64,000 nt of DNA from Actinomycetota bacterium (GCA_014239265.1 JAAZZH010000005.1:1030-65029), one strand, 5' to 3'. Numbered from the stretch's first letter, positions 2,660 to 21,809 are shown. Translations and numbers: made by a program. Notes: generated by a model not told the origin, from the sequence alone.

Positions 2660-3115
2660 ATGAGCTTACAAGTTGGAGATACGATACCTGAATTTAAATT
2701 ATACAACTATGATAAAAATGCCTACGAAGATAAGGATTTTTTAGGTAAGAAAACAATGTTCGTGTTCCTTCCGTTTCCATTCAGCAGTGTCTGTGACAAA
2801 GAAATATGTGAACTTAGGGACAATAAAGCTTCTTTAGAAGAAAATGGAACTGATACGGTTTTAATAACAGTAGGTGCGAGTCCAACGAATAGAGCATGGG
2901 CTGCACATTATGGTATTGAGTTTCCAATCCTTGCAGATTTTTGGCCGCATGGAGCAGTGTCGCAAAAATTTGGTTGCTTCCACGAAAAAGCAGGAATTTC
3001 TTTAAGGTACTCTTACATAACTGATGAAAATAACGTAATCACTGAAATAATAAAAAGTGATGAAATTGGTGTTGAGAGAGACTTTAGTGAATATAAAGAA
3101 AGTTTTGGCTTTTAA
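2660..3115 (+). CDS. Peroxiredoxin, AhpE-like
   Basis: PFPFSSVCDKE peroxidatic Cys region, LADFWPHG motif typical of AhpE; AGGAG RBS. Confidence 0.85.
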   Translation: MSLQVGDTIPEFKLYNYDKNAYEDKDFLGKKTMFVFLPFPFSSVCDKEICELRDNKASLEENGTDTVLITVGASPTNRAWAAHYGIEFPILADFWPHGAVSQKFGCFHEKAGISLRYSYITDENNVITEIIKSDEIGVERDFSEYKESFGF

Positions 3116-19006: not shown

Positions 19007-19342
19007 ATGGGACAGGATAACCTAAAAAATTTTACTTCACTAGATATTCGAGTTGGCGAGATTCTTGATGTTCTAGACTTTCCTGAAGCAAAAAATCCTT
19101 CCTATATTATCAAAATAAGTTTTGGAAAAGAAATTGGAATTAAAAAAACTAGTGCTCAGGTGACAAATTACACTAAAGAGTCACTCCTTGGTAGAAAATG
19201 TATCGCAATAATTAATCTTGGTGACAGACAAATTGGTCCAATAATGAGTCAATGCTTGGTGTTGGGTTCAATTTCTAAAGATCGTACGGTTGAACTATTG
19301 TCACCAGAAAAAAATGCATCTGTTGGGGACAAAATAGCTTAA
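19007..19342 (+). CDS. csaA: CsaA/Trbp111-like tRNA-binding protein/export chaperone
   Basis: LDIRVGEI, FPEAKNPSY, TSAQVT, IGPIMSQCLVLG. Confidence 0.88.
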   Translation: MGQDNLKNFTSLDIRVGEILDVLDFPEAKNPSYIIKISFGKEIGIKKTSAQVTNYTKESLLGRKCIAIINLGDRQIGPIMSQCLVLGSISKDRTVELLSPEKNASVGDKIA

Positions 19343-19816
19343 TTAAGTTGTAAGGGATGTGAATTTTTCTGGTTTGAAATTACCGACTCTTTTATAAATT
19401 TTTTCAGCATTGTTATCAACAAGAACATAAGTTGGTGTAAATTCTAAACCATACTTCTCAACTATTTCGTTATAGTCTTTTTTTGAAGCATTAACAGAGA
19501 CTATTGGGATTTCTGGTTTGTTTTTTTTGAATTCATTAACTATGAATTTCGAAGCAGTACATCCAAGTCAATAATCAGAATAATACTCAATAATTGTAAA
19601 TGGACTTGCTGCAAAGTCATGATCATCTATAACTGTCCCTCTATTTGAAGTAAATAAATAGAGACCAAAAAATGAACCCAGTACTACAAAGCTTAAAAAA
19701 TATAAGATAGCAATAGGCTTATAAGCAATGAAAATAACTGCTAGGCCGACAACCCATCCAAATGGTAAATAAATTAAGCTATATCTGTTTATTATCCTAA
19801 TAATTGAATTTTTCAT
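19343..19816 (-). CDS. Membrane-anchored thioredoxin-fold protein with in-frame TGA (UxxC), candidate selenoprotein
   Basis: ATG 19816, two TM helices, then FTIIEYYSDY-TGA-LGCTASKFIVNEFKKNKPEIPIVSVNA...YGLEFTPTYVLVD...TAA 19343; the frame stays open for 74 codons after the TGA at 19570-19568. Confidence 0.78.
19530..19548 (-). promoter_or_regulatory. Candidate bacterial SECIS hairpin
   Basis: AATTCAT-AGTTA-ATGAATT; the apical loop starts 26 nt after the UGA and has G at loop position 2 followed by U. Confidence 0.55.
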
Positions 19817-19855
19817 AAATTTTATTTTGTTGTTTAAGTAAATTATACTTTGAAC

Positions 19856-20266
19856 ATGGAATTGATAAGTCATATTAAGAAAAAGGGTCATAGAGTAACG
19901 CAATCAAGAGAACTTATCTGTAAAATTCTTGAAGATTCTGGACATGCACACTTCACTGTTGACGAAATATATAAGAAGGTAACTAAAAAAAATACAAATA
20001 TAGACCTTGCTACTGTTTACAGAACTTTAGAACTTTTGGGAGAAATAGGCTTAATAGCACACCTTCATCAAGCGCATGGTTCAGGAATTTATTTTTTAAA
20101 AAATGATGAAAATACTATGCACATAATATGTGTAAATTGTAATAAAATTTTAGATGTTAGCTCTAAGACCTACAATAAAATTAATAGCCTGTTGACCAAA
20201 GAGACACAGTTTACAAAAATTCATAATAATTTTATTTATTCTGGAACTTGTGGAAACTGTAAATAA
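19856..20266 (+). CDS. Fur-family metalloregulator, Nur-like
   Basis: ATVYRTLELLGEIGLIAHLHQAHG resembles Streptomyces Nur (STVYRTLELLEELGLVSHAHLGHG); HIICVNC and CGNC; adjacent Ni/Co ECF genes. Confidence 0.85.
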   Translation: MELISHIKKKGHRVTQSRELICKILEDSGHAHFTVDEIYKKVTKKNTNIDLATVYRTLELLGEIGLIAHLHQAHGSGIYFLKNDENTMHIICVNCNKILDVSSKTYNKINSLLTKETQFTKIHNNFIYSGTCGNCK

Positions 20267-20275
20267 TTATTCTAT

Positions 20276-20292
20276 TTGCAAACTGTTTGCAT
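20276..20292 (+). promoter_or_regulatory. Nur-box-like operator upstream of nikQ/cbiQ
   Basis: TTGCAA-ACTGT-TTGCAT, containing the perfect 7-1-7 palindrome TGCAAAC-T-GTTTGCA, directly upstream of a TAATAT -10. Confidence 0.7.
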
Positions 20293-20304
20293 TAATATGA
20301 ACCT

Positions 20305-21066
20305 ATGCAAACAACACATTCTCACCATTTATCTCTTCATGGTAAGTCACAACTTCATGGCATAAGCCCTCAACTTAAAATTCTTTCTGTGTTGTTGATT
20401 GTCATTTCAATTGCTTTTTCAAAAATTATTAATCCCATTCAAATTCTATCCCATGCTCTCATAGTTTTTCTTATTATCAGATATTCAAAAATTCCGATCA
20501 AGACTTATCTCAAGAGACTAACTATTGATATTCCCTTCATCTTATTTGCCCTATTTTTGCCCTTTTTAAGCAGTGGTAATAATGATGTAGTAACAACAAT
20601 CTTTACCCTCGATATCTATAAAACTGGCCTATTGGAGATGTTTGCAATACTCTTTAAGGCCACAGCTGGTCTTTCAATGGGAATTGTCCTTACTGCCACA
20701 ACTACTAATATTGAAATAATTTATGGACTTCAGAAGCTTAAATTGCCCTCAATAATAATTGCAATAATGTCCTTTTCTATCAGGTACATTGATGTTTTTA
20801 TAGATGAATTTAAAAGAGTGAAAGTTTCAATGCAATCTCGAGGCTATATAGAGAAGGGTATTAAGACTTTACTCCCCATAGCCTATGCTTCAGGAGCTAT
20901 GCTAATTAGAGGCTACGAACGTGGTGAAAGAGTTTATCTTTCAATGATTTCAAGAGGTTTTACTGGTGTGATTGAATTACAAGATAGAGAATATACTAAA
21001 TCAAATTATCTAATCTTTCTTACAACAATATCAGTCTTCGTTTTGGTCTTGGATATTAGCTTATGA
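20305..21066 (+). CDS. cbiQ: Ni/Co ECF transporter T component (NikQ/CbiQ)
   Basis: His-rich N-terminus, MQSRG and RGERVYLSMISRGF T-unit motifs. Confidence 0.9.
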   Translation: MQTTHSHHLSLHGKSQLHGISPQLKILSVLLIVISIAFSKIINPIQILSHALIVFLIIRYSKIPIKTYLKRLTIDIPFILFALFLPFLSSGNNDVVTTIFTLDIYKTGLLEMFAILFKATAGLSMGIVLTATTTNIEIIYGLQKLKLPSIIIAIMSFSIRYIDVFIDEFKRVKVSMQSRGYIEKGIKTLLPIAYASGAMLIRGYERGERVYLSMISRGFTGVIELQDREYTKSNYLIFLTTISVFVLVLDISL

Positions 21067-21809
21067 GTAAGTATTTAGAAATCACTAATTTAACCTACGA
21101 ATATCCAGATGGCTATAAAGCTCTTAACGAAATTAGCTTTAACCTTGAAGAGGGTGATTCTCTCGGAATACTTGGACCAAATGGTGCAGGAAAAACTACA
21201 TTAATACTCCATTTAAATGGCATCCTTGGTGAAATGGACGGTTCTATTAAATTAAATAATTTAGAGTTTGTTGAAGATAATTTAGCTGAAATTAGAAAAA
21301 CAGTTGGCGTTGTTTTTCAAGATCCAGACGATCAGTTGTTCATGCCTACTGTCTTAGAAGATGTTATGTTTGGGCCAAAGAATTTTGGGTTTTCAGAAGA
21401 GGCCAGTAGAGAAAATGCCGAAGAAGCATTGAAAATGGTTGGAATGAATGATTATCAGGAGAAAGCTCCACATCACCTAAGCTTTGGGCAAAAAAGAAAA
21501 GTCGCTATTGCTAGTGTCCTTGCATCTAAGCCACAGCTTTTGGTGCTTGATGAACCCAGCTCTAATCTTGACCCCTCTTCGCGAAGAGAATTAATTGATA
21601 TATTACTGTCATTAGAAATCTCTATAGTTCTTGTTACTCACGATTTGCCGATGGCCTTAGAAATTTGTCCAAAAAGTATTGTTGTTAATAGTGGATTAAT
21701 AACAGAAAATGGAAAAACAAAAGATTTGCTTACTAACAATAAGGTAATGAAGGAAAATCGATTAGAGCTCCCCTACGGTTTTGCATTACATCATTTAGAT
21801 GAAGAGTAA
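21063..21809 (+). CDS. cbiO: Ni/Co ECF transporter ATPase (NikO/CbiO)
   Basis: GPNGAGKT, VFQDPDDQLF, HLSFGQKR, LDEP. Confidence 0.9.
   Translation: MSKYLEITNLTYEYPDGYKALNEISFNLEEGDSLGILGPNGAGKTTLILHLNGILGEMDGSIKLNNLEFVEDNLAEIRKTVGVVFQDPDDQLFMPTVLEDVMFGPKNFGFSEEASRENAEEALKMVGMNDYQEKAPHHLSFGQKRKVAIASVLASKPQLLVLDEPSSNLDPSSRRELIDILLSLEISIVLVTHDLPMALEICPKSIVVNSGLITENGKTKDLLTNNKVMKENRLELPYGFALHHLDEE

Follow-up and report, generated by a model that had tools for sequence, protein, structure and literature searches.

Comparative evidence for a membrane-tethered thioredoxin-fold selenoprotein encoded through an in-frame TGA in Candidatus Actinomarina

Introduction

Does the TGA at positions 19568..19570 (minus strand) of a 64,000-nucleotide stretch of Candidatus Actinomarina DNA (GCA_014239265.1, JAAZZH010000005.1:1030-65029; the whole stretch is called the window) end a short gene, or is it read as selenocysteine (Sec) within a longer one? 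The original prediction, made from the sequence alone, placed a hidden membrane-anchored thioredoxin-fold selenoprotein at 19343..19816, with Sec in the first position of a U-L-G-C redox motif. The best explanation of the data, held with high confidence as a whole, is a Sec-decoded protein of 157 amino acids (aa) in which a membrane hairpin is joined to a minimal thioredoxin-fold oxidoreductase domain that would, with less certainty, face the cytoplasm.

Of the free-living bacteria in the sunlit ocean, Candidatus Actinomarina is described as being among the smallest and the most abundant (10.64898/2026.04.03.716425). The genome analyzed here (1.05 Mb in 96 contigs, 84% complete, 34.3% GC) agrees with the predicted host, a streamlined actinobacterium. 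Among bacterial selenoproteins, the commonest type is the thioredoxin-fold UxxC protein, and many of these come from marine metagenomes (PMC13188914, PMC9312934). For Actinomarina itself, the preprint "Actinomarina, resolved" (10.64898/2026.04.03.716425) describes 84 complete genomes, every one of which has selC, selA, selD, and a divergent selB, with selD itself a selenoprotein. It also gives about five deep-Sep candidates per genome, grouped by their first 20 residues into 69 "families", and no significant match to the Rfam SECIS models. The main text of the preprint names a 78-aa family, selD, and a K07090 family, and the words "thioredoxin" and "membrane" do not occur there; the 157-aa protein may be among the families listed in its supplement. 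A literature search on Sec use in Actinomarina or Actinomarinales returned nothing besides this preprint, and the BSepDB paper has no occurrence of Actinomarina, Actinomycetota, or thioredoxin. The protein is thus hidden in the sense that gene callers mishandle it but is less hidden than predicted, as Sec use in Actinomarina, with about five predicted selenoproteins per genome, had already been reported.

The TGA codon and the frame beyond it

The full coding sequence (19343..19816, minus strand) is a single frame of 157 codons that runs from ATG (19816-19814) to TAA (19345-19343) and contains one internal stop, the TGA at 19570-19568, which is codon 83. This codon lies in the context ...IIEYYSDY-U-LGCTASK... 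(read on as IIEYYSDY-U-LGCTASKFIVNEF) and is assigned to position 1 of the U-L-G-C motif on the basis of its conservation and its alignment to the first Cys of CxxC. Under translation table 11, only the 5' part is called as an open reading frame (ORF; 19568..19903), and no ORF of at least 40 aa is called in the 3' part.

Orthologous loci were collected by a pattern scan that used one genome per species and gave 48 loci, of which the 21 loci from an earlier genome search are a subset (21/21 identical); with the window's own genome the total is 49. At the DNA level, the same codon is TGA, not TGT or TGC, in 49/49 genomes, and the other 48 loci remain open for 75-76 codons further. When 65 genomes of the order were searched with a profile, 55 of the 64 that belong to the genus gave a full-length match containing one TGA. 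Completeness is 60-87% in the nine genomes without the gene, and each of the 12 genomes with a completeness of 90% or more carries it. The orthologues are 156-157 aa long across the genus (157 counted from a TTG start where ATG is absent), and their identity to the window's protein falls as low as 43%. The frame, motif, coordinates, and two hydrophobic helices are as originally described, and a TGA in the same column of 49/49 genomes lies beyond chance. One locus (L059) comes from a 4.7-kb contig of a metagenome-assembled genome titled Saprospiraceae; it is a typical Actinomarina locus with zero branch length among Actinomarina in the tree, and the contig is probably misbinned.

The sequence beyond the TGA is under purifying selection. 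By the Nei-Gojobori method, applied to the window's sequence and the 21 others, the ratio of nonsynonymous to synonymous substitution rates (dN/dS) is 0.226 upstream of the TGA and 0.219 downstream with a median dS above 1, and none of these sequences has a stop other than the TGA. The TGA is invariant in the 49 genomes while neighboring codons vary synonymously. No in-frame ATG, GTG, or TTG occurs within 40 codons 3' of the TGA in 39/49 genomes, so the conserved 3' part is not a separately initiated protein.

These data bear directly on one alternative, namely that translation really ends at the TGA to give an 82-residue membrane peptide and that the frame beyond it is either a decaying remnant or the result of an assembly error. 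The table 11 call reads the gene in this way, as do two database entries that end at ...YSDY. This alternative is already contradicted by the comparative data, since the 74 downstream codons are open in 49/49 genomes, dN/dS is 0.22 at saturated dS, and the TGA itself does not vary. Additionally, the identical stretch is found in DNA runs of nine studies (some of which are possibly the source). A true stop is scarcely credible.

Selenocysteine machinery and genetic code

All components of a Sec system were recovered when the rest of the genome was searched for them, as the original prediction had proposed. There is one tRNA-Sec (75.3 bits), which ARAGORN reports as SeC with anticodon tca. The selA gene scores 385 bits, above its cut-off, and is adjoined downstream by a 557-aa SelB-like ORF (selA/selB region G000:C33:4956-7864, plus strand). 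The SelB-like ORF falls below the TIGR00475 cut-off (163.8 and 33 bits, in two pieces), a score that fits the divergent selB of the preprint. The selD gene (G000:C22:85017-85943, plus strand) scores 364 bits, above its cut-off, and has a TGA of its own at the classical GSG-U-ACK site. Elsewhere in the genome TGA acts as a stop and Trp is encoded by TGG, in agreement with the earlier view that no genome-wide change of code has occurred: TGA terminates 91 of the 464 ORFs of at least 300 codons, and the only tRNA-Trp has the anticodon CCA.

Could one of the standard amino acids, such as Trp or Cys, nevertheless be inserted at the UGA with no involvement of Sec? Public gene calls appear to say so. 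Among 57 relatives from a large protein collection, 54 have W at the site, two end at ...YSDY, and none has Cys. However, none of the full-length W forms found lies on a contig longer than about 3 kb, from which we infer that these forms stem from table 4 gene calling, and longer contigs of a related cluster carry fragments that stop at the site. The tRNA-Trp(cca) and the frequent use of TGA as a stop also speak against Trp, which would destroy a motif whose first position aligns with the catalytic Cys. Finally, the genome combines a complete Sec system with a SECIS-type hairpin (see below), whereas the sister genus, in which a Sec system was not found, has Cys. Decoding as a standard amino acid is very improbable, and the database figures instead bear out the prediction that gene callers mishandle the gene (54/57 with W, 2/57 stopping at the site). 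The entries in public protein collections are mostly 157 aa long with an active-site Trp and would mislead family models and analyses of residue conservation. Because these collections hold almost only a mistranslated or truncated product, surveys of marine redox and selenium use will miscount the gene.

A SECIS-type hairpin

A hairpin of the selenocysteine insertion sequence (SECIS) type lies at 19530..19548 on the minus strand. The sequence AAUUCAU-AGUUA-AUGAAUU (19548-19530) forms a 7-bp stem and a 5-nt apical loop (AGUUA, 19537-19541), the distance from the UGA to the loop is 26 nt, and the stem is fully paired in 49/49 genomes. The bacterial SECIS (bSECIS) model calls for an apical loop of 3-9 nt with G in its first two positions, a stem of 4-16 bp, and a UGA distance of 16-37 nt (PMC13188914). 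The geometry of the hairpin falls within these ranges, with a 5-nt loop of A-G-U-U-A/G (G at position 2, then U), a 7-bp stem, and a spacing of 26 nt.

The hairpin is constrained at the RNA level. The third stem pair is U-A in 43 genomes, C-G in four, and U.G in two; C never faces A and faces G in 4/4 cases. In a tree inferred after masking of the hairpin columns, two origins are required for the C-G state, and in one clade the path runs from U-A (L075) through U.G (L067) to C-G (L065 and L066). The change from U to C replaces Phe with Leu in the protein, while the partner change from GAA to GAG is silent. Furthermore, the codons for F, I, and V at +8 to +10, which span the loop and the last part of the 5' arm, are synonymously frozen (TTC 45/45, ATA 49/49, GTT 49/49); each of the 52 other codons scored shows variation, with a minor-codon share of 0.316 on average.

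A related loop is found elsewhere in the genome. A scan of coding potential for Sec genes gave nine candidates, the gene described here included, and three others were followed up. A TlpA-like UxxC selenoprotein gene (G000:C11:180344-180802, minus strand; L163 445-903) encodes 153 aa with a signal peptide, a lipobox-like FSFC, and the active site ...VFWADY-U-GIC..., and its one TGA is conserved in 24 of the 26 genus genomes searched. The SECIS of this gene, 16 nt downstream of the UGA, shares the AGUU(G/A) loop of the hairpin described above but places it on a stem rich in G+C, and this combination of the shared loop with a different stem was seen in all three species looked at. This loop is likely a contact of SelB, and a shared loop on differing stems is what such a contact would look like. 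A second gene (G000:C1:15179-15775, minus strand; L164 280-876) encodes a 199-aa protein with a CxxU motif (...C-E-Y-U-VRSH...); its one TGA is conserved in 21/26 genomes and is followed after 25 nt by a hairpin with the loop GGUC. Judging from the motif and the review's table (PMC13188914), the CxxU protein would resemble AhpD/CMD-like selenoproteins. A further candidate of the scan, C88, proved false, the sequence 3' of its TGA being a tRNA gene. Four Sec genes are confirmed in the genome, which agrees with the approximately five candidates per genome of the preprint (10.64898/2026.04.03.716425).

Cysteine-containing homologues

If codon 83 encodes Sec, homologues with Cys at the same position might be expected. 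In the one sister-genus genome examined (G080, 71% complete), there is a full-length homologue without a stop (178 aa, ...EFSSIY-C-AGC...) that shares 28% identity (E 1e-18) and whose C-A-G-C aligns to U-L-G-C. The gene order is syntenic and consists of FMN (flavin mononucleotide) reductase, tRNA-binding protein, the thioredoxin-like gene, and a divergent Fur-family gene with a Cbi transporter. Sec machinery was not found in this genome, where the best matches to the tRNA-Sec model are tRNA-Ser genes and selA reaches 19 bits; because the genome is 71% complete, the machinery is described as not found rather than absent.

More distant homologues were sought by a profile search of 1.84 billion representative proteins, which gave 868 proteins at E <=0.001, and the best 150 were inspected. 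Twenty-seven of these 150 share the whole architecture of an N-x-Y-S motif, two helices, and a thioredoxin domain in about 160 aa, and the residue in the Sec column is C in 20 and W in seven. The TGA therefore stands at the first Cys of CxxC, as predicted, in both the sister-genus orthologue and 20/27 distant proteins. In one W cluster, the members from longer contigs are fragments of 81 aa that break off immediately before the W, so Sec forms probably also occur outside Actinomarina. The source names for Cys forms are "thiol-disulfide isomerase/thioredoxin" or, in Chloroflexota, "hypothetical protein", and a search of the ESM Atlas with the natural Cys orthologue gave only generic thioredoxin or "hypothetical" clusters.

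Protein fold and membrane topology

The protein begins with a K/R-rich N-tail containing the conserved N-x-Y-S motif, which precedes two hydrophobic helices (approximately residues 13-31 and 34-57; 19646..19780, minus strand) identified as a membrane hairpin from the AlphaFold2 (AF2) model, hydropathy, and K+R counts. The thioredoxin-fold domain follows at residues 72-157 (19346..19603, minus strand), with U83-x-x-C86 and a cis-Pro loop, T-P128-T. The Pfam Thioredoxin model PF00085 spans the TGA, matching residues 72-150. The AF2 model, built on a 22-sequence alignment, has a mean predicted local distance difference test score (pLDDT) of 79.8 and long N-terminal helices at 2-31 and 34-57. Its thioredoxin part is of the beta-alpha-beta-alpha-beta-beta-alpha type, with strands at 73-79, 105-109, 129-134, and 139-144 and helices at 86-99, 113-122, and 149-156; U83 lies at the start of helix 86-99 and Pro128 precedes strand 129-134. 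Almost all of the 50 Foldseek matches listed against the Protein Data Bank are thioredoxins (best E approximately 1e-6 to 1e-7, TM-score by target 0.65-0.75). In the wide family alignment, C86 and P128 are invariant and N10 and S13 are conserved. The proposed thioredoxin fold with cis-Pro and UxxC is supported by these results.

Models of narrower families did not claim the protein. PF13098 scores 24.1 against a cut-off of 27. Among the curated NCBIfam selenoprotein models, scanned at E <=1, only TIGR02187 (PDO_seleno_TRX) is listed, at 16.2 bits against 185, and GOS_C (NF045500), HUIPC (NF047660), and SaoT (NF040730) had no match in the scan.

The side of the membrane on which the domain lies is a separate matter. 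In all 21 full-length Actinomarina sequences, the N-tail has 3-5 K+R residues, the inter-helix loop 0-1, and the segment just after helix 2 1-3, a bias of +3 to +8 in 21/21 sequences. According to the positive-inside rule, positively charged segments of membrane proteins remain on the cytoplasmic side. The charge bias and this rule point, with somewhat better than even probability, to an N-in/C-in topology in which the domain would face the cytoplasm while held at the membrane. The bias is opposite between two groups of homologues, with a K/R-rich N-tail in Actinomarina and P0071 and a K/R-rich inter-helix loop in most of the distant Cys homologues (P0081-P0205); judging from these sequences, homologous redox domains may face opposite sides of the membrane.

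The main rival to a cytoplasmic domain accepts the same selenoprotein but turns its domain outward, like those of DsbD-gamma, TlpA, or CcmG, where it would be fed by CcdA and reduce exported proteins such as apocytochrome c. It draws on the distant Cys homologues, most of which have a K/R-rich loop and a short uncharged N-tail that predict N-out/C-out. These homologues match the C-terminal domain of the DsbD model, and C-V-A-C, the DsbD-gamma motif, is present in several. The genome also encodes one CcdA and Ccm-type cytochrome c maturation genes (CcmF/CcmC-type). On the other hand, the charge bias is the opposite in all 21 Actinomarina sequences and in P0071, the closest Cys relative (N-tail K/R 3-5, loop 0-1), and the dsbE model (TIGR00385) reaches 15.5 bits against a cut-off of 123. 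Neither ccdA nor ccm is adjacent to the gene in Actinomarina or at the 26 distant loci examined. CcdA has other possible clients as well, namely the exported, lipoprotein-like TlpA-type selenoprotein and other Redoxin-fold ORFs, which rule out the 157-aa protein as the sole possible partner. The outward-facing arrangement is unlikely.

Several observations weigh against the preferred explanation of a Sec-decoded, cytoplasm-facing oxidoreductase. The PF00085 score is marginal (24.8 bits against a cut-off of 23.5), and the TrxA equivalog model TIGR01068 gives 25.1 bits against 96.8. The topology comes from a simple charge count that is reversed in most distant Cys homologues. No contig from the three RNA libraries, in which DNA carry-over is possible, bridges the TGA by a 31-nt rule; the contigs at 19152-19549, 19389-19589, and 19576-19745 cover both halves of the gene and are neither support for translation nor firm support for transcription. 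The gene neighborhood points to no substrate, as the region is wholly syntenic in the family and the 26 distant loci differ. Covariation in the hairpin is limited to one stem pair, and five of the seven pairs never vary. The hairpin is also weak: it folds at -3.5 kcal/mol alone (z -2.9) and, in context, at -4.7 (51 nt) and -5.9 kcal/mol (66 nt) with z near 0. The bSECIS energy criterion is a minimum free energy of -7.5 kcal/mol or lower (PMC13188914), which the window's hairpin does not reach. In three other species the energies are -6.0, -7.5, and -8.5 kcal/mol, and only the C-G variants (-7.5 and -8.5) reach the threshold. However, the best hairpin of selD in the same genome, at -1.6 kcal/mol, is weaker still, and since selD is a certain selenoprotein the energy threshold seems unsuited to a genome of 34% GC. 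A whole-genome scan for similar hairpins after TGA gave eight matches, none convincing except the one described here, and missed selD; there is therefore no single SECIS sequence family.

Genomic neighborhood

The gene lies between a divergent and a convergent neighbor. A -10-like hexamer, TATAAT (19842..19847, minus strand), is located approximately 25 nt 5' of the start codon beside the start of the divergent Fur-family gene, and GTATAAT or GTATATTAT is kept at this site across the 40 distinct upstream sequences listed, which suggests that the gene has a promoter of its own beside the start of the Fur gene. At the other end, the stop codon abuts that of the convergent CsaA/tRNA-binding-domain gene (plus strand, 19007-19342) with zero spacer (19340-19345), and therefore there is no space for a terminator between the two. 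In counts that include 21 duplicate loci, the Fur neighbor is present at 67/67 loci and the tRNA-binding and FMN-reductase genes at 69/69.

In this part of the window (19856-21809, plus strand), CbiQ and an ABC ATPase come immediately after the Fur-family gene. Models of Fur subtypes all score below their cut-offs for this gene. In the sister genus (L108 3615-6538), a 315-aa CbiM-like S component stands between Fur and CbiQ, so a substrate-capture component is missing at this spot in Actinomarina. The window also holds a 171-aa Redoxin-fold ORF (2669-3094, plus strand; PF08534, 64 bits), and three more are found elsewhere in the genome.

The neighbors raise the possibility that U-x-x-C is mainly a site for a metal, Co or Ni, tied to the Fur-family regulator and the cobalt-type energy-coupling factor (ECF) transporter. 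The divergent Fur-family gene lies 33-59 bp from the start codon in 67/67 loci with that flank and is followed by CbiQ/CbiO, and the arrangement is kept in the sister genus at 28% protein identity with CbiM added. Metal-handling selenoproteins are listed in a review (PMC13188914). Yet the adjacency is unspecific, as the whole region of approximately 6 kb is syntenic within the family, and Fur or Cbi neighbors occur at 0/26 of the distant loci. The fold, the cis-Pro loop, and the position of the motif are those of redox-active thioredoxins. A mainly metal-binding role is improbable.

At the 26 metagenomic loci of distant Cys homologues, the neighbors include an EF-G paralogue (11 loci), a PF01676 metalloenzyme (10), and a TPMT/TehB-like methyltransferase (five), and none encodes CcdA, Ccm, Fur, or Cbi. 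At distant Cys loci (L130-L152, for example L132 2828-3391, L133 4480-5061, and L135 4474-5040), the EF-G paralogue is divergent and the methyltransferase lies 0-27 bp downstream. The TPMT/TehB-type family is linked with the methylation of selenium and tellurium compounds.

Proposed activity and significance

In the preferred explanation, UGA codon 83 would be decoded as Sec by the SelA/SelB/SelC/SelD system, directed by the short AU-rich stem-loop whose AGUU(A/G) apical loop, 26 nt from the UGA, is the likely SelB contact. Selenium would then be present in a product composed of an N-terminal two-helix hairpin and a minimal thioredoxin fold with U-L-G-C in place of CxxC. Most likely, this protein would be a thiol/selenol-disulfide oxidoreductase: the selenolate would attack a substrate disulfide or oxidized thiol, Cys86 would resolve the mixed selenenylsulfide, and the resulting Se-S bond would be re-reduced. 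The exchange activity at U83/C86 is proposed from the fold and the motif. The presumed reductant is TrxB/NADPH or thioredoxin; TrxB and one classical thioredoxin are encoded in the genome. Of the predicted "Sec-containing membrane oxidoreductase", the selenoprotein stands, while the words "membrane oxidoreductase" follow from fold and motif.

A wider proposal can be put forward only tentatively, as a possibility of rather low probability. The protein would belong to an unnamed membrane-tethered "selenothioredoxin" family defined by N-x-Y-S, a two-helix hairpin, and (U/C)-x-(G/A)-C. Its domain would have turned cytoplasmic in Actinomarina, the opposite of most Cys relatives in other phyla, and the gene would have become a Sec-only core gene. 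The weak AU-rich SECIS with the AGUU(A/G) loop, common to the exported TlpA-like selenoprotein, would be a lineage-specific code of the divergent SelB that energy-based finders miss in low-GC genomes.

The gene is a core, Sec-only selenoprotein gene of Actinomarina with a recognizable though weak SECIS. It will not surprise specialists in selenoproteins, but it is useful for annotation, marine selenium biology, and SECIS detection at low GC. Retaining the complete Sec pathway in a genome of approximately 1 Mb calls for clients that justify it, and there are at least four such clients, this protein among them. The Sec form in Actinomarina and the Cys form in the sister genus, where Sec machinery was not found, make a clean natural pair for asking what benefit selenium brings. 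The AGUU(A/G) loop, on hairpins below the usual energy cut-off, is a practical lead to selenoprotein genes in low-GC genomes.

Comparison with known systems

The nearest known proteins are the UxxC thioredoxin-like selenoproteins (thioredoxin PF00085, thiol:disulfide interchange PF13098, thiol-disulfide isomerase-like, and GOS_C, among others), as described in the review (PMC13188914). Shared features are the thioredoxin fold, Sec in the first position of CxxC, Cys homologues, a SECIS just 3' of the UGA, and the marine metagenomic origin of many members. Compared by description rather than sequence by sequence, the Actinomarina protein differs in its two-helix membrane hairpin with N-x-Y-S and in having U-L-G-C and not a motif of the C-G-P-C type. 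With TrxA it shares the fold (by Foldseek), the cis-Pro loop, and the two-residue spacer in the redox pair. Unlike TrxA, it is membrane tethered and is missing the strand and helix with which full-length thioredoxins begin, its fold starting at residue 72, and the genome has a separate classical thioredoxin.

DsbD gamma, TlpA/ResA, and CcmG/DsbE are also membrane-attached thioredoxin folds, and the distant Cys homologues match the C-terminal domain of DsbD. These proteins carry a single anchor or a signal peptide, with the domain on the outer side. The Actinomarina protein, in contrast, possesses two helices, is predicted from its charge bias to have an inward domain, and scores far below the cut-offs of their models. 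The score and the predicted inward domain in 21/21 sequences place it outside the CcmG/DsbE and TlpA/ResA types. It adds a membrane-tethered member to the thioredoxin-fold UxxC selenoproteins, a well-known class, and comes from a lineage in which Sec use has only recently been described.

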